Assembly (NCBI GenBank): GCA_049294435.1
Contig: JBAQCU010000020.1
Location: 13,110-77,109, forward strand
Direction of reading: 5' to 3'
Length of the DNA stretch: 64,000 bases
Source of the DNA: Minisyncoccia bacterium
GTDB lineage: Bacteria; Patescibacteriota; Minisyncoccia; Phycocordibacterales; UBA1550
Below the pieces are notes generated by a model. It worked only from the letters and a program-made list of their open reading frames with translations, ran no database searches and was not told the DNA's origin. Every line of letters begins with the position of its first letter. Position 1 is the first letter of the stretch. The translations under genes were made by a program, and so were the position numbers. This document shows positions 32,166-63,872 of this stretch, piece after piece.

Positions 32166-32453
32166 GTTAGTTTTTCATAGTGAGAGAAGCGAGCTTAGTA
32201 AAACTACACCTGGTTAAATGCGATTTTGCAAATCGCGATTTCAAATTCTCTGTTAAACAGCCTGAGAATTTTTTATTATAGTTATGTGATTTTTTCATAA
32301 TAATGTTAATTGTGTTTTTAATTTGAAATCATTTAACTGGGTAAGGAAATTATATAACTTGATACAACATATTCTGCGTTCGCTCGGAAATGCAAACTCC
32401 GTGTTTGTATTTCGCTCGCTCTCTCGCTCTCTTGAATATAGTCGCTTCACTCC
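32166..32453 (-). promoter_or_regulatory. Family 1 structured leader/repeat, copy A (core 32211-32339), filling the ftsW-murG spacer
   Basis: Shares GGTTAAATGCGATTTTGCAAATCGCGATTTCAAATTCTCTGTT at one end and AATTTGAAATCATTTAACTGGG at the other with copies at 63087-63294 and 63655-63872. Strand is given as the sense of the downstream gene. Confidence 0.6.
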
Positions 32454-39090: not shown

Positions 39091-41762
39091 TCATAGAGCG
39101 ACACTCCTTGAGGTGGCGTCCATATATCAAGCACGCCGTGCACCACTTCCGCTTGAGAAAAAAGATTTGCGTTTCCTACGCTTGGATAAGCCAAATCATC
39201 TGCTGACGATGATGCGGTTCGCCATGTATCGGTAATGAAATTTCGCAATCCAGACTCAGAATTAATAACTGTTCCATAGCGGGCACGAAAATCTGCGAGA
39301 AAATCTGAGTTATCAAATGTTACGACAGAAGTGGTAACATTTGTAAAATAGCTGACTGAGGAAACAAGATTGTAAGCAGATGACATATTTTCGGCAAGAC
39401 TGCGGGCAGTTTTTAAAGAAAGTGCGAGAGGAAAAATATCCGCAGGCAATCCTTGATCATACCCGTGTAAAATCGCACCTATCGCCTGTGGTGTTCCTAC
39501 TTGTGGCACTGCAATTAAGACAACCTTGTCAATAAGTTTAGTAGTTTCTGTGTCACCAAGTTTTTGCATAAGCGCTTTTGCCACAAGTCCACCGTTAGAA
39601 TGCGCAACAATAGTGACCTTGCCAGTTTTTGAGGTTTTCGCGAGACGACGAAGCTCTTGAATAATGTATGGTGATGATGTAGCAGAGAGGTATGAAATAT
39701 TCTCGCCTGTCTTAATACCATTGTTTAAAATATCGTCTAGAGAAAGGCGCCAATCGTATGGAGTGGTCGTTGCGATGATACCATAATCGGTCTCCCATGT
39801 TTTCATTTCTTGGAGAAATGATTTGTAAACATTCCCCTTAATCGGCAAATAGGCATTGTCAATCACATCCTTAGTGTATACATCATTTCGGACAGAGGCT
39901 CCGCCTGAGTTTAAAAATAAGTTCTCAGCATCAGCGTTTGATGATGGTTCCCAAAGTTTGTTCTCTACGCCATTGCCGTCTGGCATATACAACCGACTTG
40001 CCTCAAGCCCCGGAAGAAAAAGCACGTTGGAGTAACAATTTGTCTGACAAGAAGTTTCTAATTGCTTTACAACCACCGTTCCAGCTCCTGCGCACGTCGC
40101 AGACCAACCATCAAAGCTGACACATCCTCCTTTTGCAAAAACTCCACCAGAAAACGAGGAAGTGGCATAATAAAGAGCAATTCTGCCACCACCACCCATA
40201 CCAAATACAATGTTTGGCCAATACGCAGGACCGCCGTTGGCTCGATAGCTACCAGCACCAGACATCTTGTCGGCAGTAACATAAATACTGCCACCACTTG
40301 ACGTGTTGCTTCCATCTGCAGAAATCGTGCCGTCATTTAAAAGAGTGTCAGTAACAACAAGTCTAATAGCTCCACCTCCGTGTGGAAAATATCCATTTCC
40401 TCCGCTACCAAAATCGATTGGTGCTGTCGAGGACCCATATGTTGATGTTGCTGAATTCCACAGCCCGATACCGCCATAGCTTGCGCCAGCGGTCGCTGTC
40501 GCAGGGGCCCCTTGCCCCAACCCCGCGCCATATCCCTTTGCATTTGCGGTGACAGAACCGCCAAGAGATATATTTAGGTTTGGTATAGTTAGGGACAAAA
40601 TATGTTCTTTTGCCACGGTGAGTGTCCCACCATTTTTAATGTTTAAAGTGTCAGATACTAATGTTTCATTGCCGGACAAAGTCAATGTGCTTCCTTGACC
40701 TATATCTATTAGGGGAATATTTAATACCGAAGAACCTAATATAGTGAAATAAGAATTCTGTTCTTCCATAAGGTAATGAGCATTGATACTCGCACCATCC
40801 TTCACTGTTATTCCAGAAAGATTTCTTACAAAAATATTATCTGCAGTTACAGATACGTCTTTCTCAATCTCTACGCCTGTGCTGTTTACAATAGAAACGT
40901 TACGAAAACTAAAAGGTGTGTCATTTGCTTGAAATCTAAAAGATCCTTTTGGATACAAATCATTATTCGTAGTATCGATAAAAACTACTGTTCCATGGCC
41001 TCCAGCCGGATTACATCCATAAAAACAATAAATTCCAGCGTTTGCTTTTGCGCTACCGGTAAAAGATGACTGTTGATAATATACCGCTATTCTTCCACCA
41101 CCCCCTGAATAATAATATGGCCAGGATGTATCTGCTCCGTTTGCGTTAAATGTACCTGCTCCTGCTAATTTATTAACAGTTACATATATGCTTCCGCCAC
41201 TCGTACGATACAATTGTCCATTTGAAGAAATATTGCCATTATTTAGAAGCGTGTCAGCCACAACAAGTCTTATGGCTCCACCGCCTCTATAACCGCTTGT
41301 CCCACTCCCCAAATCAATTGGCATCATGGCAGACCCGTATGTTGAAGTGGCTGTGTTCGCACCACCAGCACCACCGTAACTTGCGCCAGCATTAGTGCCA
41401 GAAGGAGGCAACCCTGGTCCAGACGCATATCCTTTACCATCTGCGGAAATACGCGAACCTAGTGTAACCGTTATATTAGTAGCATTTATTTTTACTCCCT
41501 TGAATAAGTCCATGGAAAGCTGGTTTCCTTCTAACGTAAGTGTTGCATTATTGGCTATGGTTAAATTATTGAAATTGTATTCACCCGCGAGTAGAGATTT
41601 GCTTGCAATAACAACGACTTCAGCTTCAGTGCTATCTGCTATGGCGTTGCTATTCAAATCTGAATCTAAAACAGCAGAGGCATAAATAGTTTGAGTGCCC
41701 ACAAAGAACGTACAGAAAAAGACAGTTGCTACTGCTAATATAATTTTACTTTTACTCATCAT
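38910..41762 (-). CDS. Giant secreted protein, 5' part: signal peptide, two ~270 aa Gly-rich repeats (beta-helix-like), and an alpha/beta-hydrolase lipase domain (LCAT/PGAP1-like, AHSNGG). Probably the same gene as 37807-39090, interrupted by a frameshift.
   Basis: MMSKSKIILAVATVFF.. signal peptide. Internal repeats GASYGG(A/I)G..ATSTYGS..PID(L/F)GSG..GGGAIRLVV.DTLLN. Nucleophile motif TIVAHSNGG. The last ~45 codons are low-complexity (KRGRKLSVRKHNQHFLLP..). Confidence 0.7.
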   Translation of the reverse strand: MMSKSKIILAVATVFFCTFFVGTQTIYASAVLDSDLNSNAIADSTEAEVVVIASKSLLAGEYNFNNLTIANNATLTLEGNQLSMDLFKGVKINATNITVTLGSRISADGKGYASGPGLPPSGTNAGASYGGAGGANTATSTYGSAMMPIDLGSGTSGYRGGGAIRLVVADTLLNNGNISSNGQLYRTSGGSIYVTVNKLAGAGTFNANGADTSWPYYYSGGGGRIAVYYQQSSFTGSAKANAGIYCFYGCNPAGGHGTVVFIDTTNNDLYPKGSFRFQANDTPFSFRNVSIVNSTGVEIEKDVSVTADNIFVRNLSGITVKDGASINAHYLMEEQNSYFTILGSSVLNIPLIDIGQGSTLTLSGNETLVSDTLNIKNGGTLTVAKEHILSLTIPNLNISLGGSVTANAKGYGAGLGQGAPATATAGASYGGIGLWNSATSTYGSSTAPIDFGSGGNGYFPHGGGAIRLVVTDTLLNDGTISADGSNTSSGGSIYVTADKMSGAGSYRANGGPAYWPNIVFGMGGGGRIALYYATSSFSGGVFAKGGCVSFDGWSATCAGAGTVVVKQLETSCQTNCYSNVLFLPGLEASRLYMPDGNGVENKLWEPSSNADAENLFLNSGGASVRNDVYTKDVIDNAYLPIKGNVYKSFLQEMKTWETDYGIIATTTPYDWRLSLDDILNNGIKTGENISYLSATSSPYIIQELRRLAKTSKTGKVTIVAHSNGGLVAKALMQKLGDTETTKLIDKVVLIAVPQVGTPQAIGAILHGYDQGLPADIFPLALSLKTARSLAENMSSAYNLVSSVSYFTNVTTSVVTFDNSDFLADFRARYGTVINSESGLRNFITDTWRTASSSADDLAYPSVGNANLFSQAEVVHGVLDIWTPPQGVSLYEIAGWGEDTLATILSIKRGRKLSVRKHNQHFLLPKHIACTPLLPLLFITQKKWWMVTGQW

Positions 41763-44432: not shown

Positions 44433-46097
44433 TTACCCTTTCGCCTCAAGCTCAACATAAAAGCTTGAGCCATGACCTTCCCCTTTAGACTCAGCCCAAA
44501 TTCGTCCTTCGTGTTTCTTAATCACTTCTTTCGCCACATAAAGACCTAGGCCAGTTCCTTCTGTATATACTTTGTTTACACCCTCACCACGACTAAACTT
44601 TTTAAAAATTTTTTCAAGCGTCATTGAGTTCATCCCAATACCTGTGTCTGATAAACTAAAAATAATTTTTTTTCTGTCTGAACTTTTGGATAAGAGTAAG
44701 GATATTTCTCCATTTGGTGTGTATTTTATAGAATTATCTATGAGATTTGAAATAACTTGTCGCAATTTTCCACTATCTCCCACAGTAATAAACTGCTCAT
44801 TACCCGAAACGCCATCATCTATCATCACGTTAAAGACCAAACGTGCATGGAGAGCATTCTGCTCCATATCACTCGCGATGTCTGTGACTAGTTTTTTCAT
44901 ATCCACGTCGACAAATTTATAATTCATATCACCGCTTTCTATGCGTGAAATATCCATAAAATCAGAAATCACAACAACGAGATGTCCGCTTGAAACAGAT
45001 ATCTTTTCAAGCGCATCCATCACGGGATGAGAAAGCGGGCCAAAAGAACCCTCGATGAGCATTGATGCATAACCTTTAATAACGGTAAGCGGGTCACGCA
45101 AGTGGTGCGCCGCAATGGAGAGAAATTCTGATTTTTTCTTATCAAGGAGCTTCAAACGCTTTGATATTGCATCAAGATTATGAGAAAGACGTATAATCCT
45201 CTCTTCAGACTCTATCTCGCGCTTCACGCTTCTTGCTAAAAATGAACTGGACAAAATGATTAATAACGTGATTACTGTTCTAATAAACAAATCGTAGATA
45301 GAATTCGCGAAAAAGAGCTCGGTTATAAGAACAAGCGCAATAATAGAGATGAGCAACTCAATAGTAATAATTTTAATGTTAAAAGAATTGTACTTTATGA
45401 GAATAAATGAAGTTGCAAAAATAAGCAGGCTTACAGAAAAGTGTCCAATCCAAAACATACCATGCTGTCCAACAGTAAAAATCGGAGGCATGAATGACAT
45501 TACCATCGTTATTGCGCAGACAAAACCAACCACTGTAAGCATCTCGAAAATTGCAGTTTTAAGAATCCCGACACTTTCTTGATATTTTTTAACAAGCAAG
45601 AAAATAGCTGCTACAAGATACGTAAAAATATAAAAAATGTATATCAGGAATCCTTTACCTAAAACCATGCCATCAAGAGCTCCAGTGGGGGCCTCCTGAT
45701 AACTGACAATGAATGATGGGTACCAGTACAAAATACCGACTATTGCAAAATAGGGTACGAAAAAAGCAACAAATTTTTGAAACGAAATCTCACTATTTTC
45801 AATCGAAAATACATGCAAAAATATAAATAAAAATGGAGGCACGATGGCGGCGACTGCGTAGAGTGCCACGATTCCCATATAAACGCCAGATATACTGAAC
45901 GAGCCATCTAAAATAGCATAAACAAAACTACTCAAAAGATTTATAATCGCTAAAAAAAAGAAAATTCTGCTGTTGCGTTTTGCAAGATCCTGCCAAAATA
46001 TAACCCACGAGAGTACCACGATAAAAAGATTCCATATCACGAGTACGCACATCTCAATGGAAAGGTTACTGATAATATCAAGTAATGCTACTGGCAT
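44433..46097 (-). CDS. Sensor histidine kinase with an N-terminal multi-TM sensor, HisKA and HATPase_c domains
   Basis: H-box SIAAHHLRDPLTV; G-boxes DTGIGM, GTGLGL. Confidence 0.85.
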   Translation of the reverse strand: MPVALLDIISNLSIEMCVLVIWNLFIVVLSWVIFWQDLAKRNSRIFFFLAIINLLSSFVYAILDGSFSISGVYMGIVALYAVAAIVPPFLFIFLHVFSIENSEISFQKFVAFFVPYFAIVGILYWYPSFIVSYQEAPTGALDGMVLGKGFLIYIFYIFTYLVAAIFLLVKKYQESVGILKTAIFEMLTVVGFVCAITMVMSFMPPIFTVGQHGMFWIGHFSVSLLIFATSFILIKYNSFNIKIITIELLISIIALVLITELFFANSIYDLFIRTVITLLIILSSSFLARSVKREIESEERIIRLSHNLDAISKRLKLLDKKKSEFLSIAAHHLRDPLTVIKGYASMLIEGSFGPLSHPVMDALEKISVSSGHLVVVISDFMDISRIESGDMNYKFVDVDMKKLVTDIASDMEQNALHARLVFNVMIDDGVSGNEQFITVGDSGKLRQVISNLIDNSIKYTPNGEISLLLSKSSDRKKIIFSLSDTGIGMNSMTLEKIFKKFSRGEGVNKVYTEGTGLGLYVAKEVIKKHEGRIWAESKGEGHGSSFYVELEAKG

Positions 46098-52839: not shown

Positions 52840-53478
52840 TCAGTTGTCAATTGTTCCCCCTACGTGTCCGAAGGCCTTTACTTTCGCGGGACGAATAACT
52901 TTACTATGCAAACGATAACCTTTTTGTATAATCTCGGAGACTGTATCTGCATCTTTTTCTGATTTTGGCGGAATCTCCTCTATAGCGATATGGAGCCGTG
53001 GGTCAGTCTTCTCCCCCACTTCCCCTATTTCTGTGAGCCCCCTCGACTCAAGAACAGAATACATTTGCGCGTAAATATATTCAACTCCTTTCCGCCAATT
53101 CTCGTCTACTTTTTCCCATGCTTCTTTGTTTCCAAAAGCCATCGAGAAGCTATCTAACACCGGAATTAAATCATCAACAAGCCCCTCAGCTGCGAATTTT
53201 ATCATTTCACCACGACTTTTTTCCTCCTCTTTTTTAACATTTGCGAAGTCCGCGCGCATTCTTTGCCACCCATCCAAATAGTCTTTCTTCTCCTTTTCGC
53301 AGATTTTGAGTTTCTCACGCATTTTCTTCTGTGTAAGGGCTGGGTTCTCCAAATCCTCCTCACTTTCAAAAGACACGGGGTCAATATACGTAGTATCGTC
53401 CTTCGTGTCAAGTAATTCACTTTGAGCATCGACACCCGCTATTTTCTCATCTTTTTCTTCGCTTTCGTTTTTTATCAT
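52840..53478 (-). CDS. grpE: Nucleotide exchange factor GrpE
   Basis: Coiled coil plus C-terminal beta domain (DFANVKKEEEKSR...AIEEIP). Confidence 0.85.
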   Translation of the reverse strand: MIKNESEEKDEKIAGVDAQSELLDTKDDTTYIDPVSFESEEDLENPALTQKKMREKLKICEKEKKDYLDGWQRMRADFANVKKEEEKSRGEMIKFAAEGLVDDLIPVLDSFSMAFGNKEAWEKVDENWRKGVEYIYAQMYSVLESRGLTEIGEVGEKTDPRLHIAIEEIPPKSEKDADTVSEIIQKGYRLHSKVIRPAKVKAFGHVGGTIDN

Positions 53479-53700
53479 AGTTATTGAAACCTTATCTTAT
53501 CACACTGGGGAAAGTAGTGGAAATTACTATGAATTTTTAGTCTTATTTTTATTTGTTGTTATTTCTGTTGTTTTTAGAACTTTTCTTGCCTCCCCTTTCC
53601 CTTCCCTCATCGCTTTTGTATACGCTAAAACGATAGCCGACTTAGGAGCCTGCAAAACTGCACCCGTCTGAAATTGTTCACCTAGAATAGTTACCATAAG

Positions 53701-53907
53701 TTAGATATTACCATAATTTGCATTTATTTCAATACCGTTTTCTGTTGCGATTTTATCCATAGACTGGGCAGCTGCAACAAGGCTCCTTGCCATCACCTTC
53801 CTGCCTTTAGACATCCTTAGTTTGATATAGCTCAATTTGTCGGTGTCATCCCTTTTCTTATATTCATCTACCTCAATGATCATAGATGTAATTCTACCAC
53901 AGACCAC
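53701..53907 (-). CDS. Hypothetical small protein (68 aa)
   Basis: ORF only; located beside a Family 2 element and the TA remnant. Confidence 0.3.
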   Translation of the reverse strand: MVCGRITSMIIEVDEYKKRDDTDKLSYIKLRMSKGRKVMARSLVAAAQSMDKIATENGIEINANYGNI

Positions 53908-54013
53908 CTATCAAACAACTTCCAACGGCTCAGATGTAGGGAAGTTCTCTCTTATTTTGCTAGCTATACGTCGCTAATGAGCCGTTCAAATTTTAAATCA
54001 AAGGTACCTGACC

Positions 54014-54134
54014 TGCTCTGTAGAAAACATGGTTGTAGTCTTTGCGAGGCACGAAGCAATCTAGGTTTTACGTGTAATTTTATGGATTGCCACGTCGCAA
54101 GCTCCTCGCAAAGACAGTGTTTTCTACGGAGCAT
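54014..54134. repeat. Family 2 nested-palindrome element, copy b: inverted ends TGCTCTGTAGAAAACA / TGTTTTCTACGGAGCAT, flanked by the 8 bp direct repeat ACCTGACC (54006-54013 and 54135-54142)
   Basis: Inner core (GTCTTTGCGAGG..CGAAGCAATCTAGG..GGATTGCCACGTCG..CTCGCAAAGAC) is homologous to copy a; the outer stem differs in sequence but is still complementary. Confidence 0.55.
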
Positions 54135-54190
54135 ACCTGACCTTATATCGCATCAAAGCATGCTCAAAACTTCACAATTAGCTAGAAATC

Positions 54191-54421
54191 CTAAAGTGTT
54201 CTTTTATAGATTTTGTAAATACGACTTCTGTGGTCAACCATTTTGATTGTGATTACCTTGCCAGAAACCTTGTACAAAACGCGATAATCACCGACACGTA
54301 GTTTGTAAACTCCCTTCAAATCATAATGTAAAAGTTCTGGAATTAAACTAGCATAGTATTCAGCATCCACAGCATCAAGATCCGCAACTGCTCTCTCGTC
54401 CTATTTAACGACCAGCGCCAT
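54191..54421 (-). pseudogene. RelE/ParE-family toxin remnant with an in-frame TAG at codon 7 (MALVVK*DERAVADL..YKLRVGDYRVLYKVSGKVITIKMVDHRSRIYKIY)
   Basis: Manual translation of the minus strand. The C-terminal RVGDYRVLY...HRSxIY pattern is typical of RelE/ParE. TAG is used as a stop elsewhere in the window (e.g. uvrB). Confidence 0.6.
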
Positions 54422-54502
54422 ACTTTTCCGCAACACGGTCATGCGAGATGGGTTTAGACCTCACAGCAAGGCGTATTTTTAATCTATTGATAAACGGCTT
54501 AC

Positions 54503-54601
54503 TTAAAGACAAAAAACTAAACTGTCAGGGTCACCGAGTAATTCATTAAGCTTTTTCTCAACGAGAAAATCTATTTTTTTATCGAGTGCTTTTAAGGTCA
54601 T
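54503..54601 (-). CDS. Short antitoxin-like ORF (32 aa, MTLKALDKKIDFLVEKKLNELLGDPDSLVFCL) directly upstream of the RelE remnant
   Basis: Manual translation; below the ORF-track length cutoff. Its position as the upstream partner of a RelE-like gene suggests an antitoxin. It may be truncated. Confidence 0.3.
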   Translation of the reverse strand: MTLKALDKKIDFLVEKKLNELLGDPDSLVFCL

Positions 54602-54656
54602 ATAAAAATATTACCCCAAAAACTGCCAAAAAGCAACAACATCACCCTTCGCCTTA

Positions 54657-55259
54657 TTATTTCATCGCTCGAAGTTTCTTTGTATATTCCTCCCCACAAT
54701 CAGATTCTAATTCTCCGAGAACAAGTTGAATTGACTTATACTGTCCCGTTGGTATTGAAGAAACATACTTGTATTTTTTATACAATGGTTTATAAAACAT
54801 TCTTAGCAAGAAATGAAGTTCCCAGTGCATATCAAATAGTATCCGATTGCGTTTTTCATTTAATATTTTATTTGAACTATAGCTATTTTCTGGACATCTA
54901 ATATGTACAGTAAGAGGCCCCAATTCATTTCTAAACATTCTTACTGCTGCCTGACGGATATTCCCGTTATCGTGTTGTATCAAATAAAACAACCAAGGGA
55001 AAAGAAAGTCTGGCTCAGCTTCCCTATCGTGCAGAAAATATATTACTGACACCGCCATAGCAAAATTCTCCTGTCTCCAATCTTCACTAATAGTCACGTA
55101 TACACGGTCAGCACTATTAATAATTTTCTTCATTTCAATAAACTCTTCTTTTCCGCTTTTTGAACTATACAAAAATTTACGAACACTCCTCGCAGCCTCC
55201 CTGCTGGATTGCCTGTCCCCCTCTAATATAATTTTAAACAAAGCATTAAATGACTGCAT
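54657..55259 (-). CDS. Hypothetical protein (200 aa)
   Basis: ORF with a TATAAT box and a ribosome-binding site upstream. No confident domain. Confidence 0.5.
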   Translation of the reverse strand: MQSFNALFKIILEGDRQSSREAARSVRKFLYSSKSGKEEFIEMKKIINSADRVYVTISEDWRQENFAMAVSVIYFLHDREAEPDFLFPWLFYLIQHDNGNIRQAAVRMFRNELGPLTVHIRCPENSYSSNKILNEKRNRILFDMHWELHFLLRMFYKPLYKKYKYVSSIPTGQYKSIQLVLGELESDCGEEYTKKLRAMK

Positions 55260-55314
55260 AGTTTTGTTTATTTTTTACCTTCTTTCTCCATATATTTCAT
55301 TCTATTATACACTC

Positions 55315-55620
55315 TTATACGGATAAGGCACTAAAATCAACCGTGTCACCGTCAAAAAGAATTGAATGGTCTCTAGGCGGGATGCCGTTGATTGAAAACC
55401 CAATTAAACCTGGCGGATATTTTTCTTCAATCTCCGGGCACTCCATAAAAACATTCATCAGTAAGTACAAAAAAGATGCCCCTTCGCTAATTATTACTGA
55501 GTGCCCCTCATTCCCCGTAATCTTCTGTAGCTCTTTATCGAAGCGGACATTGACACTCATTGCCCTTGGCATACCGTGCATCTCTGATTTTTCATTTGTA
55601 ATCTTTTTCATACATTTCAT
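55315..55620 (-). CDS. Ubiquitin-fold (MoaD/ThiS / Ub-Mut7C-like beta-grasp) small protein, without a C-terminal GG
   Basis: Core MSVNVRFDKEL..GASFLYLL..INGIPPRDHSILFDGDTVDF matches the beta-grasp sulfur-carrier pattern. Begins MKCMKK, as RhuM does. Confidence 0.45.
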   Translation of the reverse strand: MKCMKKITNEKSEMHGMPRAMSVNVRFDKELQKITGNEGHSVIISEGASFLYLLMNVFMECPEIEEKYPPGLIGFSINGIPPRDHSILFDGDTVDFSALSV

Positions 55621-55764
55621 TCTACCCTAAAACATTTTGTGCTCAAAATGTTCGGGCAACCCGTAACTAGCGGGTTTAACCCTAAACTGTCTTCGGCGGT
55701 CGGGCGACACTGCGAAGCAGGGTTTAGCCACAGACCGCACCTCACCAAAATTTTGATCCTCATC
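55621..55764 (-). promoter_or_regulatory. Family 3 leader, copy 1: shares ~90 bp plus the first four codons (ATGAAATGTATG) with the RhuM leader; hairpin AACATTTTG-tgctc-CAAAATGTT (55631-55653) overlaps the AGGG ribosome-binding site; contains a 47 bp internal duplication
   Basis: Aligned directly against 56770-56880. Confidence 0.55.
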
Positions 55765-56784
55765 TCAATGCCCCTTTTCTTTTGTTCCCTTAACTTTTAA
55801 AAGTTTTTTCACCTCCTTGTCAAAGTCTGAAACATAATTTCTGTCTCTCACCTGCCTGTACTTTTCGTATTCCCTAAAAGCCAACGTTTCCGCATCCTTT
55901 GCGCTCACCGTACCCGCAGTATGCAATAGTTTCTTTTCAGAGATTGTCAGAAATTCATCGAGCTTTATAATCCAATCTTGCATTTTCATGAGTCGCCCAC
56001 TAGAAGCCTGCAAATCTGCAAAATCGATGTACAAAGAAACAATCAAGTTGAGCTGACTTATTTCTGACTCAGATAAATAATTTTTTGCAATAGGAATGTC
56101 TCCTGCGGTAATGTAGTCGTTTTTAAAACTAGTTAATCCCATCAGTGGCTTTCTACTATCAGCACGCTTGGCAATTATTTCTGCGGCGGTAGAACCATGC
56201 ACTGCGTAGTGCATTTTATTTTGTACCATGGCAAAAAACTTTTGAGTTTGCTCCGTGTCTACTTTGTAATCGATGCTAGTTGCGTATATATCAGTGACTT
56301 TCTGATAAAACATACGCTCACTACTGCGAATATCTCTAATTCTCTGTAAAAGTTCTTGGAAATATCTTGCACGGCCATCACCCTGCTTTAATCGTTCATC
56401 ATCCATAGTAAATCCCTTAATCAGGTATTCACGCAACCTCTCCGTTGCCCATATGCGAAATTGAGTCCCCTTATCAGACCGCACTCGATACCCAACGGCC
56501 AAAATAGCATCAAGATTATAATGCTTTGTATCATACTCCTTACCATCTGTAGCAGTTATCCGGAAATTCCGGATAACTGAATTTTCATTTAATTCCAGTT
56601 CTAAAAATATATTTTTTAGATGCTCATTAGCCGTACGTACATCAATAACAAAAAGTTCTGCAATTAATTTTTGCGTTAGCCACACATTTTCATCCTCAAT
56701 TCTAACACGAATTTTTTGATCGTCGCCAAGAATTTGATAGATTGCTATTTGTATTTTTTCTGTTTCCTTCTTCATACATTTCAT
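55765..56784 (-). CDS. RhuM-family virulence/Fic-associated protein
   Basis: ENVWLTQKLIAELFVIDVRTANEHLKNIF and GYRVRSDKGTQFRIWATERLREYLIKGF match conserved RhuM-family blocks. Confidence 0.7.
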   Translation of the reverse strand: MKCMKKETEKIQIAIYQILGDDQKIRVRIEDENVWLTQKLIAELFVIDVRTANEHLKNIFLELELNENSVIRNFRITATDGKEYDTKHYNLDAILAVGYRVRSDKGTQFRIWATERLREYLIKGFTMDDERLKQGDGRARYFQELLQRIRDIRSSERMFYQKVTDIYATSIDYKVDTEQTQKFFAMVQNKMHYAVHGSTAAEIIAKRADSRKPLMGLTSFKNDYITAGDIPIAKNYLSESEISQLNLIVSLYIDFADLQASSGRLMKMQDWIIKLDEFLTISEKKLLHTAGTVSAKDAETLAFREYEKYRQVRDRNYVSDFDKEVKKLLKVKGTKEKGH

Positions 56785-56880
56785 TCTACCCTAAAACATT
56801 TTGTGCTCAAAATGTTCGGGCGACCCGCAACTAGCGGGTTTAGCCACAGGCCTCCTCTCATCAAGATTTTAATCTTCATT
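56785..56880 (-). promoter_or_regulatory. Family 3 leader, copy 2 (upstream of RhuM): hairpins CCCGC-tagtt-GCGGG and AACATTTTG-tgctc-CAAAATGTT (56795-56817) immediately before the ribosome-binding site and ATG
   Basis: Aligned directly against 55606-55745. Confidence 0.55.
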
Positions 56881-56952
56881 TTTGTAATTCCATTTTTAGA
56901 ATTTTAGAAACGAGTGGCTGACCCCCATTTTTCCCATTTTTGACCCCCTTTT

Positions 56953-57624
56953 TCAATCGGAAATGTCCGCTTGTTCCTTAAATATTATTTTCTTTCTGTA
57001 TGCCTTACAATAATTAATTGTAGAACAAATTTCCTTGAAAAGTAATTTTGATTCGTTTTCCTCATAATCATACTCCTCCTCAGACTTACCTTGGAATTTA
57101 TAGTGCAAAAAACTGCTCCTTTTTTCAGAAACCTTCTTAATTAAATTAAAATGTTTTCTGTTAAATTTAGGTAACTTCATAACATCAATTAACCAAGTAA
57201 ACTTACCCTCAAAAGAAACATATTTTAATAATTCCTTAAGCGTACTATTAGGAACATCATTTCTAATAGTCCATATTTGAATAATTTCGTTAATGAAGTG
57301 CTCAAAATACGTTGCCAGAAAAACGTATGCAAGGTTAAAATCATCTTCCTTAACAGATTGTTCAAAACTACTCAAAAGGGTATCTTGATGAATAATTACA
57401 AAATGAGAATGTTTACTTTTTGCACGTTGCCTAACCCATTTTCTGATTTTCTCATCTACCAATTTTTTATTAGAAAGATCAGCGACAACAAGAACTCCAC
57501 AAATTATTGCTGACTCAACAAGTTGAGGAAAAATTTCTTTCAACAATTGGTGACCTTCACTATCTACTGCCATTCCCTCTTTATTAGTTTGCTCCTTTAT
57601 CATAGTGCTATAAAATTTCATCAA
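56953..57624 (-). CDS. Hypothetical protein (223 aa), possibly HEPN-like (R-x4-H: EKRSSFLHY); last gene of the restriction-modification operon
   Basis: Overlaps the 3' end of the RM gene by 17 nt. The Rx4-6H motif alone is weak evidence. Confidence 0.4.
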   Translation of the reverse strand: MMKFYSTMIKEQTNKEGMAVDSEGHQLLKEIFPQLVESAIICGVLVVADLSNKKLVDEKIRKWVRQRAKSKHSHFVIIHQDTLLSSFEQSVKEDDFNLAYVFLATYFEHFINEIIQIWTIRNDVPNSTLKELLKYVSFEGKFTWLIDVMKLPKFNRKHFNLIKKVSEKRSSFLHYKFQGKSEEEYDYEENESKLLFKEICSTINYCKAYRKKIIFKEQADISD

Positions 57625-60600
57625 TCTCCCTCATTACATTATCTGTCTCCGTAAGTACCACAATAATCTTTTGATAGTGTTCGATGTCAGCGTTGGTGAG
57701 CGTGCGGGTTTTGCGGTCTTTCAGCCATTTTTGAGCGGGTTGGTATCCACCGATGTAGAAATTCCATGCGACTTCGGGAACATTGCCAAAATACTGGGTA
57801 TCGTTTATGTAGACATTTCCATTTTCATATTTTATTTTTTCCACAGTGTCACTCCCCGCTACAGGGTATGAAGTAATAAGATTGTTGCATTCGGATGCGG
57901 TCATCAAGTGTAGTTCACGGAGCTTAGTACCAAGAGGCACCAGCTTCCAAAATTCTTCCTTATTTTTTGGATATGGTACGCGTGGAAAATCTGTTTTTAA
58001 AAACTCGCTATATTTAGTGCGGTAGCTTGGTGAATATAGGTATGCATAAATATAGTCCAAAATATTTTCAGGAGTAATCCTAATATCACCGTCTTTTGTA
58101 TTATATTCAGCTACAGGATAATACACACTACCGACAGCTTCAGCAATTTTTCTTGAAATTACTAGATCGATGTTTGGAATTCTTGAAACTCTAATATTTC
58201 CCACCTCGCCAGCATGAAAACTACTGCCAACTTCTGGATAAAGATAGAGTGGAAATGATGCCCCGATTTCAGAAGTTTTATTTGAAACATAACTTGATTC
58301 AACGATATTGTCATGGACTAGAACATGTTGAAACCCCTCAATCTTCTGCTGCCTGCACAACATAAGTCCAATATTTTCCTTATTTATCAAATGTTGCATG
58401 ACGTCCCACCGTCCGCGTTCTACAAACTTCTTATCATAATAAATATATCTTGTATCAAATGGTCTATAATTTATCTTACAAACTTTGCCTTCTTCATAGT
58501 CAAAACTTTGATTATTTGCATAAGCAATAATATTTTTCTTGAGCAATTCCTTATCTTCCGAGATAACGATAGCATCTCGCCCTGTTACTATTCCTACGCT
58601 GGAGGTAGTAAATAATTCACTAACAGAAAAACCTTCACTGTATGCGCCCTTATTTTCTCCTTCCAGCTTCCAAACATCACATTCATCTGGCAGTTTCACC
58701 CACATCACTGTTTCTACACTGGCGATATCGAGCATCTGAAACTTGGCATCTCGTGTGCCATACATATCACTAACATGCACAGTCGCGAGCTTTTTATCTC
58801 TAATATTTAGGAACTTTTTAACTGCCAAAATTATAGACACACCTGACATGATATCAAAAACATTTTCATCTTTTGTTCCGTCTGGACTTATTTCCTTTTT
58901 ACGACTATTGCCGTGTAAGTCAACTACATAAATTTTATCGAATGTGTTTCTCAGATGCCAACGCATTCCGCGGAATGTTGGGTTGTCTATATAGCCATGT
59001 GCAGTAATCATCCCAACAATTCCCTCTCCGTTTTTCTCGATGAGACTCTCGGCAAAACGAATAAACTTAACGTAGTCGTCGTTAATCCATTTACTATTTC
59101 GCTCTTTTAATTTTTCTTTGCCCCCAATTTCAACCTTGTAAACATCATTGTCGGTGTAGTGAGGGTTCATTGATTCACCGCTGTACGGCGGATTCCCAAT
59201 CACACACATAATCGGATACTCGGACTTCACACGCGATGCATTTTTGCTTTCCTCGGCAATACTGTCCATAATTCCGAAAAGTGTATCCTGGGTTGAGTAG
59301 TCAATTGGTGCATCAAGGGTGTTGGTGAGATACACACCGAGGCGGGTATTGATATTATCTGCACCGGTATCGTGAAGTGTCATGCCGAGTTTCAAGTGCG
59401 CGATGGTGTACGAAGCCATCATGAGCTCAAAACCATGCAGGCGTGGCAGGAGGTCGTTTTCTACATACGCAGGCCATCTCCCCTCTTGTCCTTTGAAATT
59501 TTCATGAATATGATTAATTACCTCATTGAGAAAAGTACCTGTCCCTGTGGCGACATCGAGTACCTGCACCTTGTGATATTCTTTTTGAACTTTTACCTCC
59601 TTACTTTTGTTGTTGATTTCTTTTTTCTCAATGATAACCTTGGTTGTATCGGTAAGACCTTTTTCAAGACCAAATTCACTTTTTAGCAGACTGTCGACTG
59701 CTCGCACAATAAACTGCACTACTGGTCGCGGTGTATAGAAAACACCCATTTCCATTTTTTTCTTTGAGTCGTACTCCTTCAAAAAATCTTCGTAGAAGTG
59801 AATGACTGGATCCTTGTCGTCTTTTTCTTTTTGATAGAAATCACGCAGTATTTTTTCTACATCGGCGTGAGTAAAAACTTCACAAAGCTCGTCGACAATA
59901 AATCTCAATTTATCAGGAAAGGATGTACCTGCAATGTGGTCAAAAAATGAGCGTAGAAACGGATTAGTTTTAGGAACAAGCTCGCGCGCTTCGGTACGAG
60001 AAAAATCTTCGGGAGTTGTGTCGTTATAACGTGCTGCAAAAAGCCCATACACGAGAGTTTGTGCATACATATCGGCAAAAGATTCATCGTCAAGACCAGA
60101 AACAAGGTGCTCGCGAACCACATTACGCATTTTGAGCAAGTCAGCATATTTGTGCGAAGGATTCGCAAGCATTTCTCGCACATTGCCTCGAATACGCTGA
60201 GCCTTGCCGCCCATAATCTGAGCAAGATGTTTCCCGCGTTTAATAGGCTCCTTGTGAGACGAAGAAAAGTCTACAAGGGTTTTTGGAAGAAGTGAAAAAT
60301 TTTTAGGGAATGCAGTTATTGTGCGATTGGTTTTGTCGAAACTTGCAATAGCAACAGGCTCGCCGTATCTCTCACCATTGCGATAGAAACGAAATTCAAC
60401 GTAGTCAGTAAGCACAAGATTATCATAACCAAAGTAACGCTCCATTTGGTTACTTTTTTCTATTTTGTCGAGGCTGATGCCTATATCTTTTGCTTCAATG
60501 TAGAGAATGGGTACTCCATTTTTCGAAATAACAAAATCGGGCTTATTCCCATCATCATTTGTTGAATCGTGGTTGATTTGTGTTACCTTGCCATCAGCCT

Positions 60601-60727
60601 GAAAAATTTGTTTCAAGAGCAACTCAAAGTCAGTACGATAAATCATCTCTCTTCCGTTTGAAGCATCCAGACGGGCAAATTTTTGTGCGATATTCTTTAA
60701 ATATTCTTCCATAGTAATTATTGACAC
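57608..60727 (-). CDS. Type IIG/IIL restriction-modification enzyme, MmeI-like: N-terminal PD-ExK nuclease, gamma-class N6-adenine methyltransferase, C-terminal target-recognition domain
   Basis: N-terminus DFVISKNGVPILYIEAKD (D..EAK). MTase motif I VLDVATGTGTFL and motif IV IGNPPYSG. 1039 aa in a single chain. Confidence 0.8.
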   Translation of the reverse strand: MSIITMEEYLKNIAQKFARLDASNGREMIYRTDFELLLKQIFQADGKVTQINHDSTNDDGNKPDFVISKNGVPILYIEAKDIGISLDKIEKSNQMERYFGYDNLVLTDYVEFRFYRNGERYGEPVAIASFDKTNRTITAFPKNFSLLPKTLVDFSSSHKEPIKRGKHLAQIMGGKAQRIRGNVREMLANPSHKYADLLKMRNVVREHLVSGLDDESFADMYAQTLVYGLFAARYNDTTPEDFSRTEARELVPKTNPFLRSFFDHIAGTSFPDKLRFIVDELCEVFTHADVEKILRDFYQKEKDDKDPVIHFYEDFLKEYDSKKKMEMGVFYTPRPVVQFIVRAVDSLLKSEFGLEKGLTDTTKVIIEKKEINNKSKEVKVQKEYHKVQVLDVATGTGTFLNEVINHIHENFKGQEGRWPAYVENDLLPRLHGFELMMASYTIAHLKLGMTLHDTGADNINTRLGVYLTNTLDAPIDYSTQDTLFGIMDSIAEESKNASRVKSEYPIMCVIGNPPYSGESMNPHYTDNDVYKVEIGGKEKLKERNSKWINDDYVKFIRFAESLIEKNGEGIVGMITAHGYIDNPTFRGMRWHLRNTFDKIYVVDLHGNSRKKEISPDGTKDENVFDIMSGVSIILAVKKFLNIRDKKLATVHVSDMYGTRDAKFQMLDIASVETVMWVKLPDECDVWKLEGENKGAYSEGFSVSELFTTSSVGIVTGRDAIVISEDKELLKKNIIAYANNQSFDYEEGKVCKINYRPFDTRYIYYDKKFVERGRWDVMQHLINKENIGLMLCRQQKIEGFQHVLVHDNIVESSYVSNKTSEIGASFPLYLYPEVGSSFHAGEVGNIRVSRIPNIDLVISRKIAEAVGSVYYPVAEYNTKDGDIRITPENILDYIYAYLYSPSYRTKYSEFLKTDFPRVPYPKNKEEFWKLVPLGTKLRELHLMTASECNNLITSYPVAGSDTVEKIKYENGNVYINDTQYFGNVPEVAWNFYIGGYQPAQKWLKDRKTRTLTNADIEHYQKIIVVLTETDNVMREIDEIL

Positions 60728-60734
60728 TATAAAT

Positions 60735-61802
60735 TTAAATCCTCACATACCTCGTACCGCGTCCGCGACCGATACGCCTTATTTTCTTGAGTTCAAGGAG
60801 CCTTTCGACTGATTGTCGAACTGTGCTGAGTGCAATGCCTGTTTTTCCTACTATTTCAGCAACACCCGTTTCGTCTACGCTTGAGATGTACTTCCATACC
60901 GCAAACTGTTTTGGGGAAAGCGTATCTTCAATGTGTTCTTCTTTAAGAAATATGAGTGCTTTTGTTGCCTGTTCTTTGACAACACCGAGAAAGAAGTTGA
61001 GCCATGGAGCAATCGTGTCGTGTTCTGTTCCAAATGTCTCTTGTGATTTTATAAGTGCGACATAGTATTCGTCTTTGCGTCGTTCGACGATTTGCTCATG
61101 AGAAACATACTGCACAAACTGGTATTCAGATCGGAGTAAAAGCAAGTTAGTCATAACGCGCGAAAGACGCCCGTTGCCGTCTTCGAATGGGTGAATTTTT
61201 AAAAATTCAACAAGGAAGTTGGCGATTACAAGCAAAGGATGGAACCGTCGGTCTATAAGTGCGTCGTATGTCCAGTCGACAAGCTCGGTCATTTCTCTAG
61301 GAGCGCGCCATGCTGGAGTTGTTTCAAAAATTACTTTTGCTATAGATTTTCCATCAGGCGCAAGTATGCCGACGGTGTTTTCAATTTTTTTGTACTTGCC
61401 TTTGTGGAGTTTATCTTTGTCAGAATATTTGAGAAGCTCGTTGTGTAGCGAGCCAATCACCCCTTCACGGAGTGGAAGCGTCTGATAACTATCAAAGACA
61501 TTTTGAAGCACTTCAAGGTAGCCCTGCACTTCTTGATAGTCGCGCTCGGCAAGCTTCGATGCCGTGAGTCCCTGCATGACTTTCTCCACTTCTTCGTCGG
61601 AGAGTTTTGACCCCTCAATACGGGTCGATGCACCAGCAGAGGTAACAAGCACCGAGCGTTTGAGGCTGGTAATTGCTTGTGGAGTCATCCGTAGCCCACC
61701 TTTGAACTCCCCTCTCATGCCGTCAATTTCAGCAACAAGAGATAGTATATGAGGCGCGGGCGCTTGAAGCCTGTGATCAAATTTTGTCTTATTTTCGTCC
61801 AT
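60735..61802 (-). CDS. Fic-family protein, class II (N-terminal inhibitory helix with S-x3-E-G) and a C-terminal winged HTH
   Basis: Fic motif HPFEDGNGRLSR; inhibitory motif ASTRIEGS; C-terminal LSTVRQSVERLLELKKIRRIGRGRGTRYV. Its stop lies 7 nt before the RM start. Confidence 0.85.
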   Translation of the reverse strand: MDENKTKFDHRLQAPAPHILSLVAEIDGMRGEFKGGLRMTPQAITSLKRSVLVTSAGASTRIEGSKLSDEEVEKVMQGLTASKLAERDYQEVQGYLEVLQNVFDSYQTLPLREGVIGSLHNELLKYSDKDKLHKGKYKKIENTVGILAPDGKSIAKVIFETTPAWRAPREMTELVDWTYDALIDRRFHPLLVIANFLVEFLKIHPFEDGNGRLSRVMTNLLLLRSEYQFVQYVSHEQIVERRKDEYYVALIKSQETFGTEHDTIAPWLNFFLGVVKEQATKALIFLKEEHIEDTLSPKQFAVWKYISSVDETGVAEIVGKTGIALSTVRQSVERLLELKKIRRIGRGRGTRYVRI

Positions 61803-61873
61803 AATTTACCGCTATACTGTATATAGTTGATTATAGCGGATTATGGCGGGAGAAGTCAATAACAATTTTTGTA

Positions 61874-62000
61874 ACCCCTCACACCTATAGAAAAATTCTA
61901 GAAGACCAGAGTCATTGCGAGTAGATAGCGTCCAAGACGTGAACTTGCTAGTTCAGAAACAATCCATGAGTCCTGGATTGCCACGTCGGAGTACCGACTC
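61874..62000. repeat. Family 2 element, copy c (partial or rearranged): left end GTAACCCCTCACACC is identical to copy a; inner core (TCATTGCGAG..CTGGATTGCCACGTCGG..GACTCGCAAAGACGG) is homologous to copy b; no matching right terminal repeat
   Basis: Read from sequence. Confidence 0.45.
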
Positions 62001-62052
62001 GCAAAGACGGAAAACTAGAGTTTCGTAATTCAAAGTTTATGAGATAGAAGAA

Positions 62053-62086
62053 AGAGCGGGATTGCTGAAGGCAATCCCGCTCTTTT
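62053..62086. terminator. Hairpin AGAGCGGGATTGC-tgaag-GCAATCCCGCTCT with TTTT (plus strand) or TTTCTTCT (minus strand); terminator of the rpsI operon and/or the repeat-region transcript
   Basis: 13 bp perfect stem read from sequence. Confidence 0.55.
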
Positions 62087-62224
62087 AATGTGTAAAATGT
62101 TTCGCTTAGGAAACGTTCAAATATTAGGATGGATGCGAGGCGCTAAAAATTTTTTCGACCAAGGTGTACAAGTGTACATTGCGGGAGAAAAAATTTTATA
62201 GCAACAAAGCAGACACCCAATATT

Positions 62225-62741: not shown

Positions 62742-63086
62742 TTATTCAGTAATTTTTAAATTCTTCATTCGCACTTTATGCAAACGGTTGCGGGGAATCA
62801 TGCGTGAAATTGCGCGGAGGAAAACTTCAGCGTAACCCTTTTTCTCGATGGTGTACCCAACGGTACGCTCACGAAGTCCGCCTGGGTAGCCAGAGTATGT
62901 CTTTGAGTGCACCTCTCCCATCTTTGATGGAGCGATGGTTGCCTTTGAGGCATTTAGAACAATCACTTCTACTGGAGCTACGAGGTGCTTCTGGAATGCG
63001 ACCGAGTTTTTACCCATAAGAACGCTGGCTGCCTCTGTGGCAACACGTCCTACGGATTTTCCTTTTGCGTCAATTTTGTATGTCAT
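62742..63086 (-). CDS. rplM: 50S ribosomal protein L13
   Basis: MTYKIDAKGKSVGRVATEAA.. The ORF track's MEIFKIS.. extension comes from the upstream repeat; the real start is the ATG at 63086. Confidence 0.85.
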   Translation of the reverse strand: MTYKIDAKGKSVGRVATEAASVLMGKNSVAFQKHLVAPVEVIVLNASKATIAPSKMGEVHSKTYSGYPGGLRERTVGYTIEKKGYAEVFLRAISRMIPRNRLHKVRMKNLKITE

Positions 63087-63294
63087 GGTAGATCTTCTTA
63101 GCGAGCAAAGCGAGATTTTGAAAATCTCCACCCGGTTAAATGCGATTTTGTAAATCGCGATTTCAAATTCTCTGTTGAATAATCAGCAGAGGATTTATTA
63201 TCATTACGTGATGCTAACATAAAGTGTGTCATATTACTAATTTGAAATCATTTAACTGGGTTTGAAAATTATAGTCGCTTCCCTCCTTAATTTT
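63087..63294 (-). promoter_or_regulatory. Family 1 structured leader/repeat, copy B (core 63134-63259) between rplQ and rplM
   Basis: Contains, in gene sense: a TATAAT box right after the rplQ stop; the long-range inverted repeat CCCAGTTAAATGATTTCAAATT ... AATTTGAAATC[GCGATTTACAAAATCGC]ATTTAACCGGG; and the palindrome GAGATTTTCAAAATCTC before the ATG. Confidence 0.6.
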
Positions 63295-63654
63295 CTAAAC
63301 GAACTCAATAACCGCCATTTTAGAAGCATCTCCGCCACGACGTGGTAGCTTCACAATACGTGTATAGCCACCGGCGCGCTCTTTGTAGCGAGGCGCAATT
63401 TCATCAATAAGCTTCTTTGCACCTTCCTCTCCAGAGACACCGCCAAGTCGTGAAATAATAAGACGACGTGAAGCAAGGTCTGCTTTGCCACCACGTGTAA
63501 CCAATTTCTCCACGAATGGTCGGAGTTCTTTGGCACGAGCTTCTGTAGTCTCTATATGCTCAGTTTTAATAAGAGAAAGCGCAAGAGAACGTAGAAGCGC
63601 AATGCGTCCTGCGTGATCTCGTCCGAATTTTCGAATTGACTTGTGGTGTTTCAT
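63295..63654 (-). CDS. rplQ: 50S ribosomal protein L17
   Basis: MKHHKSIRKFGRDHAGRIALLRSLA.. is canonical L17. Start at 63654; the ORF-track extension to 63699 is repeat-derived. Confidence 0.9.
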   Translation of the reverse strand: MKHHKSIRKFGRDHAGRIALLRSLALSLIKTEHIETTEARAKELRPFVEKLVTRGGKADLASRRLIISRLGGVSGEEGAKKLIDEIAPRYKERAGGYTRIVKLPRRGGDASKMAVIEFV

Positions 63655-63872
63655 GGTTGATTTTCTTAGCGAGTGAAACGAGATTTTGAAAATCTCCACC
63701 CGGTTAAATGCGATTTTGTAAATCGCGATTTCAAATTCTCTGTTGCATAATTTACGGGGAATTTATAATCGTTGTGTGATACTAGCATAAAGTGTGTCAT
63801 ATTGCCAATTTGAAATCATTTAACTGGGTTCTCAAAAAATACATTAGCTATACTCATTATTTTTTGGAATAA
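63655..63872 (-). promoter_or_regulatory. Family 1 structured leader/repeat, copy C (core 63702-63827) between rpoA and rplQ
   Basis: About 90% identical to copy B over the conserved arms; the central ~65 bp is homologous but more diverged. Confidence 0.6.

Follow-up and report, generated by a model that had tools for sequence, protein, structure and literature searches.

A stretch of 64,000 nucleotides (nt) from a metagenome-assembled genome of Minisyncoccia (Patescibacteria), referred to here as the window, contains a RhuM-family gene and a small ubiquitin-like gene that are each preceded by a copy of the same module. This shared sequence is probably a locally duplicated promoter module, which would provide each gene with its own promoter for a leaderless messenger RNA (mRNA) and would have as its core one copy of a two-hairpin repeat. 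About 80 loci from many Patescibacteria were found to carry this repeat, hereafter called the element. An earlier note, made from the sequence alone, had interpreted the shared region as a structured leader concealing a ribosome-binding site. Every gene in the region studied lies on the - strand, and sequences are given in the reading of that strand.

RhuM and the ubiquitin-like gene are preceded by two direct copies of one module

The two genes and the two module copies are located in the window as follows (aa, amino acids).

55765..56775, - strand: RhuM-family gene, 336 aa with the second ATG as native start; the open frame reaches 56784.
55315..55611, - strand: small beta-grasp (MoaD/SAMP/ubiquitin-like) gene, 98 aa counted from the native ATG.
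56773..56879, - strand: repeat module copy 2, 107 nt directly upstream of RhuM, native ATG included, delimited by alignment and repeat search.
55609..55763, - strand: repeat module copy 1, 155 nt, from the RhuM stop codon to the native ATG of the ubiquitin-like gene.

Direct-repeat searches paired positions 55590-55681 with 56754-56845 (92 nt, 89% identical, ungapped) and positions 55720-55763 with 56836-56879 (44 nt, 82%), in agreement with pairwise alignment. The longest perfect run was 51 nt (56771-56821, identical to 55607-55657; GCCCGAACATTTTGAGCACAAAATGTTTTAGGGTAGAATGAAATGTATGAA) and the identity between copies continued through ATGAAATGTATGAA. A 29-nt core was found at these two sites only in the 64-kb window, none being expected by chance (100 shuffles). 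The near-identity of the sequences upstream of the two genes was therefore confirmed, and both shared hairpins were found to fold as previously described. Hairpin H1 of the window copies corresponds to ACCCGC-tagtt-GCGGGT and hairpin H2 to CCCGAACATTTTG-agca-CAAAATGTTttaGGG, with a 4-nt loop; H2 pairs CCC with a GGG located 4 nt before the first ATG. The predicted fold of the 131-nt copy-2 region had a free energy of -34.5 kcal/mol (z = -3.2 against shuffles), and the copy-1 region gave z = -0.9. On its own, H2 was predicted at -11.2 kcal/mol at 37 C and -8.9 kcal/mol at 45 C, with a structure unchanged between 10 and 45 C.

Three double-hairpin elements, two of them intact, were recognised within the modules.

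56789..56845, - strand: intact element of copy 2; GGCTAA, H1 (56823-56839), CG, H2 with its CCC/GGG pairing (56789-56820), end TTAGGG.
55625..55682, - strand: intact element of module 1; starts with GGGTTAA, not GGCTAA.
55680..55729, - strand: decayed tandem element in copy 1; keeps GGCTAA, TCGCCCGA and TTTAGGG in order, with both hairpins eroded and a weak fold.

Against the covariance model of the element (R1, described below), the copy-2 element scored 67.5 bits (E about 1e-13) and the module-1 element, with landmarks GGGTTAA, TTGCCCGA and TTAGGG, 60.8 bits (E about 4e-12); both window copies are part of the R1 seed, which makes their own scores partly circular, and 47 non-seed copies scored alike. 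The R1 search found the element at this one locus only in the window. The window repeat is longer than the element, exceeding it by about 37 nt upstream and 16 nt downstream, and stops at the second ATG. Copy 1 is itself longer than copy 2. The extra block reported earlier as a 47-bp internal duplication is indeed present, but it measures 48 nt and corresponds to the decayed tandem element rather than to a simple duplication.

RhuM and one repeat make up a 1164-nt unit between direct copies. The copy-2 module is homologous to a single module found before the ubiquitin-like gene in two relatives (L002 and L003), and this single module is a mosaic of both window copies. An independent assembly of run SRR28062858 (Logan) is interrupted within the repeat, 16 nt short of the ubiquitin-like gene; such a break is to be expected when a genuine repeat is preceded by two different left contexts. 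This break, together with the differences between the copies at several positions and the presence of the 48-nt block in one of them, makes an assembly artefact unlikely, and the duplication was considered genuine. Homologues of the ubiquitin-like gene outside the window lineage do not carry the element. It was also absent upstream in the five loci holding the three closest RhuM homologues fetched, and these homologues were rejected as the origin of the repeat.

Each module carries a promoter-like site next to the native start codon

The first ATG shared by both copies, together with the four codons MKCM that follow from it, is most likely non-coding, and the native start is most likely the second ATG (MKK) in both genes. 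RhuM homologues that are 80-86% identical across very different bacteria begin MKKET, the NCBI annotation calls both genes from the second ATG (giving 336 aa for RhuM) and the closest RhuM loci are devoid of the element. The MKCM codons noted earlier are thus identical in sequence between the two copies, but are unlikely to represent a coding start.

A consensus scan identified one promoter-like site in each copy.

56783..56810, - strand: promoter-like site of copy 2; TTGAGC at 56805-56810 (5' arm and loop of H2), 16 nt, TAGAAT at 56783-56788.
55619..55646, - strand: promoter-like site of copy 1; TTGAGC at 55641-55646, 16 nt, TAGAAT at 55619-55624; native ATG at 55609-55611.

Both copies therefore display the arrangement TTGAGC-16-TAGAAT-7-ATG, which fits, by consensus match only, a sigma-70-type leaderless geometry with hexamers 16-18 nt apart and an ATG that begins 7-8 nt after the second hexamer. 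In copy 2, the A of the native ATG (56775) is positioned 8 nt after the TAGAAT hexamer. The relative L002 keeps TAGAAT-7-ATG, and another locus (L054) has TTGAGG-16-TACAAT-6-ATG before an unrelated gene.

Shine-Dalgarno matches were detected for 7 of the 43 window genes using a loose test. Strict -10 hexamers were found 6-7 nt before the start codon of 6 other genes in the window, against about 0.6 expected; examples are TAGAAT-7-ATG at 4780 and TATAAT-6-ATG at 46097 and 25087. Strong -10 boxes (TATAAT, TACAAT or TAGAAT) were also seen 6-8 nt before many starts, with examples at 4780, 10226-11638 (- strand), 25087, 44433-46097 (- strand), 21593 and 22395. This pattern, in a genome poor in Shine-Dalgarno sites, suggests that leaderless mRNAs may be widespread in this Minisyncoccia genome.

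We infer a leaderless promoter from consensus and position only. In the arrangement that we propose, each module would stop precisely at the native ATG of the gene that it precedes, with the -10 box TAGAAT 7 nt before this ATG and a -35-like TTGAGC, contributed by H2, 16 nt further upstream. Transcription would start at or beside the A of the ATG and produce a leaderless mRNA; the hairpins would then lie upstream of the transcript and be unable to regulate translation. A gene inserted between a promoter and the gene formerly served by it would deprive the latter of a usable start, a situation that a second copy of the promoter module before the ubiquitin-like gene would remedy. The direct repeats could allow the gain or loss of RhuM through homologous recombination.

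The core of the module belongs to a family of double-hairpin elements

A first scan of one genome per species, using an H2 stem with a 5-nt loop, identified 33 loci. These loci belong to Parcubacteria/Paceibacteria-type genomes, including Yanofskybacteria, Harrisonbacteria, Taylorbacteria, Sungiibacteriota, Campbellbacteria, Minisyncoccia and others. A second scan of metagenomes with the 4-nt H2 loop of the window added 43 further loci. All copies share the same plan, made of GGCTAA, a variable H1, CG-CCCGA, H2 and TTAGGG, over a length of 57-75 nt; the core in the window is 57 nt long. The covariance model R1 was built from 27 aligned copies and run over all the collected loci (8-kb genome pieces), returning 74 copies in 72 loci at E < 1e-9.

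H1 spanned 8-52 nt, and each of its 10 modelled pairs changed on both sides. Of the cells, 96.7% could pair, compared with 80.8% in shuffles and no more than 53% after sliding of the partner, and none of 500 shuffles reached the observed score. The invariance of H2 was partly forced by the search patterns, and covariation in this hairpin was seen only in five diverged copies found by R1. Their H2 stems are unrelated, and in two cases the CCC/GGG pairing is preserved by compensatory changes (GGTC/GACC and TCC/GGA), in agreement with the pairing of CCC with GGG proposed in the earlier note. Maintenance of the element as a hairpin pair by selection is partly shown.

R1 also matched the reverse strands of L030 and L023 with 56-60 bits. 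The whole element is near-palindromic, its left half (GGCTAA-hairpin-TCG) resembling the reverse complement of its right half. Tandem copies were found in L007, L008, L014, L025 and L042, and up to five copies were present within 16 kb of one genome (L013, L023).

Searches with Rfam 15 returned nothing at the element, either in positions 53000-59000 of the window at E values up to 10 or in the 33 loci of the first scan at the gathering score. Viral contigs gave no match and a literature search found no paper describing the element. The family seems undescribed, and its kind, the short palindromic interspersed repeat, is known. The proposal of a portable regulatory cassette was borne out insofar as the module is found before many unrelated genes in many Patescibacteria. 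Further copies and a stable fold, the absence of which would have refuted the earlier note by its own test, were both found; neither points to the mechanism put forward with them, the occlusion of a ribosome-binding site.

The element abuts stable RNA genes and is found inside some of them

The element is most often located immediately before a transfer RNA (tRNA) or transfer-messenger RNA (tmRNA) gene. In about 30 loci, its GGG end corresponds to the first bases of a tmRNA gene or of a gene for tRNA-Trp, -Glu, -Ser or -Ala. In 9 loci, a divergent tRNA has its 5' end next to, or overlapped by, the GGC end. Upstream open reading frames (ORFs) often terminate in the TAA of GGCTAA, and convergent ORFs terminate in the complement of TTAGGG. 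Copies located after ORF ends were found in both orientations, about 24 in one and 10 in the other. Two syntenic sites recurred with different, compensated H1 stems, one between rpmG and tRNA-Trp and the other between a small GIY-YIG gene and tmRNA (13 loci). Such recurrence argues for long vertical maintenance under hairpin selection.

Some lineages gained the element, as seen from insertions inside tmRNA genes. The 540-nt tmRNA gene of L042 (1348-1887, - strand) has a 205-nt insertion in the pseudoknot region that holds two copies (1609-1675 and 1425-1493), and that of L013 (3991-4391, - strand) has one copy (4179-4234), also in the pseudoknot region. In L022, the Rfam RNase P model aligned CCCGAAC..H2..TTAGGG as helix P3, directly before GAGGAAAGUCC; this match is weak and the contig ends early. 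No copy of the element was found inside any protein-coding gene of the collected loci.

Other features of these loci were noted. A GIY-YIG nuclease-like gene of about 85-100 aa lies directly upstream of tmRNA, with the element in between, in 13 of the 13 tmRNA loci (L008, L013, L014, L017, L021, L027, L030, L032, L042, L052, L053, L057 and L061). L027 and L032 have a second element on the other side of this gene. The small GIY-YIG gene was considered as a mover of the element and this idea was rejected; it is flanked on both sides in only 2-3 of the 13 tmRNA loci and plain synteny is more likely. In L042, three head-to-tail copies with a 67-nt period (1882-2087, - strand) are located between the GIY-YIG gene and tmRNA, and the tandem repeat unit has absorbed the final codons of the GIY-YIG gene. 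In RNase P RNA genes, H2 with a CCC/GGG base was seen in the P3 position, immediately followed by GAGGAAAGUCC, in L022 (120-187, - strand), L040 (1450-1512) and L041 (343-405, - strand); all three contigs stop short of the gene's 3' end. The L041 gene may contain a further element-like insertion after P4.

The hairpins appear to be constrained on both strands or at the DNA level

Only 6 G-U pairs were counted among the 591 H1 pairs, and G-U and A-C mismatches were equally rare (15 against 11). A stem made almost entirely of Watson-Crick pairs, the near-palindromic organisation of the element and its presence in both orientations point to a constraint acting on both strands or at the DNA level.

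Extended -10 promoters (TGCTATATT, TGTTATACT, TGGTATAGT) were found 10-37 nt upstream of the element in at least seven tRNA-adjacent copies, against an estimated 0.5 or so expected. With a promoter upstream, the element at these tRNA loci would be transcribed as a leader that ends at the annotated mature tRNA 5' end. The mature 5' end of a tRNA is the cleavage site of RNase P.

The order promoter-element-tRNA also rules out an efficient terminator in that orientation. A bidirectional terminator would fit the stop codons found on either side of the element and the copies that separate convergent genes, and is contradicted by this order and by the tmRNA-internal copies. As regards intrinsic termination, the terminator scan did not list the element as a G+C-rich stem with a U run directly behind it. 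A canonical terminator precedes the element in L054 and L028.

Another candidate was CAAAAT in the 3' arm of H2, acting as a -10 box that fires at GGG and generates leaderless stable RNAs. Its spacing is attractive, and H1 was more -10-like at loci with a divergent tRNA (6 of 8) than in other copies (19 of 63). It was set aside because extended -10 promoters lie upstream at tRNA loci, other tRNAs use TATAAT and H2 is found inside the RNase P RNA of L022.

Alternative explanations for the shared module

Several observations weigh against the assignment of a leaderless promoter to each window module. The promoter match is 9/12, and shuffled sequence reaches equal quality about 12 times per 4 kb. 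We found no demonstration of leaderless translation in Patescibacteria in the literature. The -10 box located right after GGG is present only in the window lineage and in L054 and is no family trait. At other loci, the element sits downstream of good extended -10 promoters and is transcribed, and the window copies may likewise lie in a 5' untranslated region produced from an upstream promoter. A TAAAAT hexamer is indeed present 20 nt before copy 2, and copy 1 has CAAAAT instead. Finally, the comparison with L002 and L003 leaves undecided whether RhuM was inserted in the window lineage or lost in the relative.

These observations leave some room for the main alternative, possible though rather unlikely, in which the promoter lies upstream of GGCTAA and the element forms a structured 5' leader in the RhuM and ubiquitin-like mRNAs, serving at the RNA level in 5'-end protection, processing or insulation, as appears to be the case before tRNA and tmRNA genes. 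Translation would start independently of a Shine-Dalgarno sequence in the A/U-rich stretch after H2. The seven or more tRNA-adjacent copies with an upstream promoter, the sense orientation of the tmRNA-internal copies and of the RNase P RNA half-element, and the TAAAAT hexamer before copy 2 all speak for such a leader. However, the near absence of G-U pairs in H1 gives no sign that one RNA strand is selected, and both orientations are used after ORF ends. The upstream hexamer also differs between the two copies. The presence of a -10 box at 7 nt from the ATG agrees with what is seen across the genome.

It is more doubtful still that the element is a functional RNA module in its own right. It would be a leader of tRNA and tmRNA precursors that RNase P frees exactly at the UUUUA end. 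It could serve to recruit RNase P or its protein, to titrate either of them, or be a small RNA itself; the copies before defence genes such as RhuM would place these genes under the same control. A role in recruitment or titration is conceivable because the conserved H2 sequence also occupies the helix P3 position of an RNase P RNA.

A cassette recombination site, either attC-like or another site read as a hairpin, appears very unlikely. RhuM would then be a site-specifically inserted cassette with one site on each side. Like integron attC sites, the element has short conserved ends and a variable, strictly Watson-Crick palindromic centre, and copies can flank single genes: RhuM with one repeat is a unit bordered by direct copies, and the small GIY-YIG gene of L027 and L032 likewise stands between two copies. 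However, the attC core RYYYAAC ... GTTRRRY is matched neither by CCCGAAC ... GTTTTAG (H2) nor by the H1 ends GCTAAAC / GTTCGCC, and the element has two hairpins, not one. No integrase or recombinase was found in the island genes and the other scanned ORFs of at least 110 aa between 41.8 and 63.7 kb, a scan which left out the 950-aa ORF at 38910-41762 and most smaller ORFs. Moreover, the window repeat overruns the element on both sides, and most copies occupy fixed syntenic places (rpmG / tRNA-Trp, GIY-YIG / tmRNA) and not arrays. The integron-like shuffling previously envisaged is thus not supported.

Slightly less probable again is the mechanism suggested in the earlier note, whereby an AGGG ribosome-binding site is hidden by H2 until temperature, a small RNA or a ligand opens the hairpin and switches both genes jointly. 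The proximity of the CCC/GGG pairing to the first ATG, its compensation in two diverged copies and the conserved and stable structure speak for such a mechanism, and fourU and ROSE RNA thermometers likewise have a hairpin beside the start codon. However, GGG is the end of the element throughout the family: it is conserved where tRNA or tmRNA genes follow directly, the first bases of which it provides, and it lies inside the RNase P RNA gene in L022. Shine-Dalgarno use is rare in this genome (7 of 43 genes) and the native start is most likely the second ATG. Unlike in fourU and ROSE thermometers, there is thus no Shine-Dalgarno sequence to hide, the hairpin is stable, the element is found before tRNA genes too and the true start is probably the first base of the transcript. 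A thermometer, riboregulator or attenuator is also difficult to reconcile with an H2 that is still at -8.9 kcal/mol at 45 C, with an H1 of free sequence and with the lack of any Rfam thermometer or riboswitch match at E values up to 10.

Lastly, it is hardly credible that the leader encodes a small protein of 32 or 48 aa (MKIKIL..LNP..NILSTKCFRVE) with a TGA overlapping the ATG and translationally coupled to both genes: the frame is open in both copies and preserved by the 48-nt insertion, and 4 of the 7 differences in the first 12 codons are synonymous, but the ATG is missing in the closest relative (L002/L003), the frame crosses H1, which differs freely among the 74 copies and leaves no conserved peptide, and there is no Pfam match.

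Comparison of the element with known repeats

The element appears to be accepted, or made use of, at gene boundaries, in the 5' leaders of tRNA and tmRNA precursors and within tmRNA genes. In this respect the family is comparable to the short palindromic interspersed repeats known from other bacteria. REP, BIME and REPIN sequences of Enterobacteria and Pseudomonas are short intergenic palindromes kept as hairpins, often as inverted doublets, located just after stop codons, single or in tandem. The element is similarly a short intergenic imperfect palindrome with two hairpin halves and Watson-Crick pairs only, found after stop codons, single or in tandem. Unlike REP and REPIN sequences, to which it is unrelated in sequence, it has few copies per genome region rather than hundreds, one conserved hairpin (H2) and one free hairpin (H1), and ends that abut the 5' ends of stable RNA genes. 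No REP-associated transposase was seen, although no search was aimed at one.

Rickettsia palindromic elements are 100-150 bp long and are found in frame in protein genes. The element described here is also tolerated inside functional genes (two copies in a tmRNA gene and a half-element at P3 of an RNase P RNA); in contrast, its intragenic copies were found in RNA genes and none in protein genes. Correia elements (NEMIS) of Neisseria have 26-bp terminal inverted repeats and a TA target duplication. Like them, the element is a small palindromic repeat that would lend promoter parts to the next gene, in this case through the H2 arm that provides TTGAGC. Unlike in Correia elements, the inner hairpins vary, and a transposase reading conserved ends is unlikely. 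The unusual traits of the family are the combination of one free and one conserved hairpin, the base-exact position of its ends at the 5' ends of stable RNAs and the presence of copies inside tmRNA genes and of a half-element in the helix P3 position of an RNase P RNA.

TIGR arrays of Patescibacteria and phages have variable yet palindromic stems in tandem units (PMC12045711). The element resembles them in phylum and in its variable palindromic stems, which can be in tandem, but it has no box C/D motifs, and identity with TIGR stem-loop arrays was rejected.

The two genes belong to a defence-type island

RhuM and the ubiquitin-like gene are part of a defence-type island (window 53500-62200) located between rpsI-rplM and grpE-dnaK-dnaJ. 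The other genes of the island encode a Fic protein (SoFic), a type IIG restriction-methylase, a 223-aa protein, a 200-aa protein and a ParE toxin; the gene order is Fic, restriction-methylase, 223-aa protein, RhuM, the ubiquitin-like gene (as a 101-aa frame), 200-aa protein and ParE. The type IIG restriction-methylase has a Type ISP C-terminal domain. No Pfam or PADLOC model matched the 223-aa and 200-aa genes.

The identity of RhuM was confirmed by Pfam PF13310 (E = 1.8e-108, 362 bits against a cut-off of 33.7) and by a match to PADLOC PDC-S05. Its relatives (P0016-P0134, 79-86% identical) come from Patescibacteria, one Gammaproteobacteria bacterium record and many unassigned contigs. This conservation is unusually high for a defence-island gene and suggests, from sequence comparison, that RhuM may be frequently transferred horizontally.

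The ubiquitin-like protein had no Pfam match, and its 14 homologues are all of Patescibacteria type. AlphaFold produced a beta-grasp model with a mean predicted local distance difference test score (pLDDT) of 81. The best Foldseek match of this model was MoaD (6jbz_B, template modelling (TM) scores 0.66/0.77), and SAMP1 and ubiquitin-like chains were also matched with target-normalised TM scores of 0.65-0.8. The protein has no C-terminal Gly-Gly; it ends with DFSALSV, and the ends of its homologues vary, none being GG. The label Ub/MoaD-like given earlier therefore appears right for the predicted fold only, the C-terminal Gly-Gly being absent.

Other repeats and motifs were noticed in the window. 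The motif (A)ATGGGGTCAGCCAC was found in the window (56914-56928, - strand), in L005 (9811-9823), in L085 (2710-2722) and in L086 (2643-2655). It is intergenic and, in three unrelated Patescibacteria genomes, precedes either RhuM or the ubiquitin-like gene; the window copy is preceded by a partial second copy, GGGGGTCA. Near rplQ, positions 63078-63273 and 63646-63841 form a 196-nt direct repeat with 86% identity at an offset of 568 nt. A third copy, which is partial, occurs at a distance of 31 kb (32195-32354), and all three share ATTTGAAATCATTTAACTGGG. Positions 5121-5198 are a perfect tandem duplication of a 39-nt unit, AATGCGTGGTCGCAACTTGGAAACCCGACATCCAAGTGA.

Implications

Expression of two defence-island genes probably depends on a duplicated promoter, the end of which coincides with the start codon. 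This organisation would illustrate how new genes can be accommodated by a genome in which ribosome-binding sites are few. It also calls for caution, as starts such as MKCM and leader hairpins may be misread in such genomes. Beyond the window, a conserved, covarying two-hairpin element is found across many Patescibacteria, positioned to the base at tRNA and tmRNA 5' ends and built into tmRNA and RNase P RNA genes. Since Patescibacteria are almost all uncultured, such conserved non-coding signals provide one of the rare ways into their RNA expression and processing.

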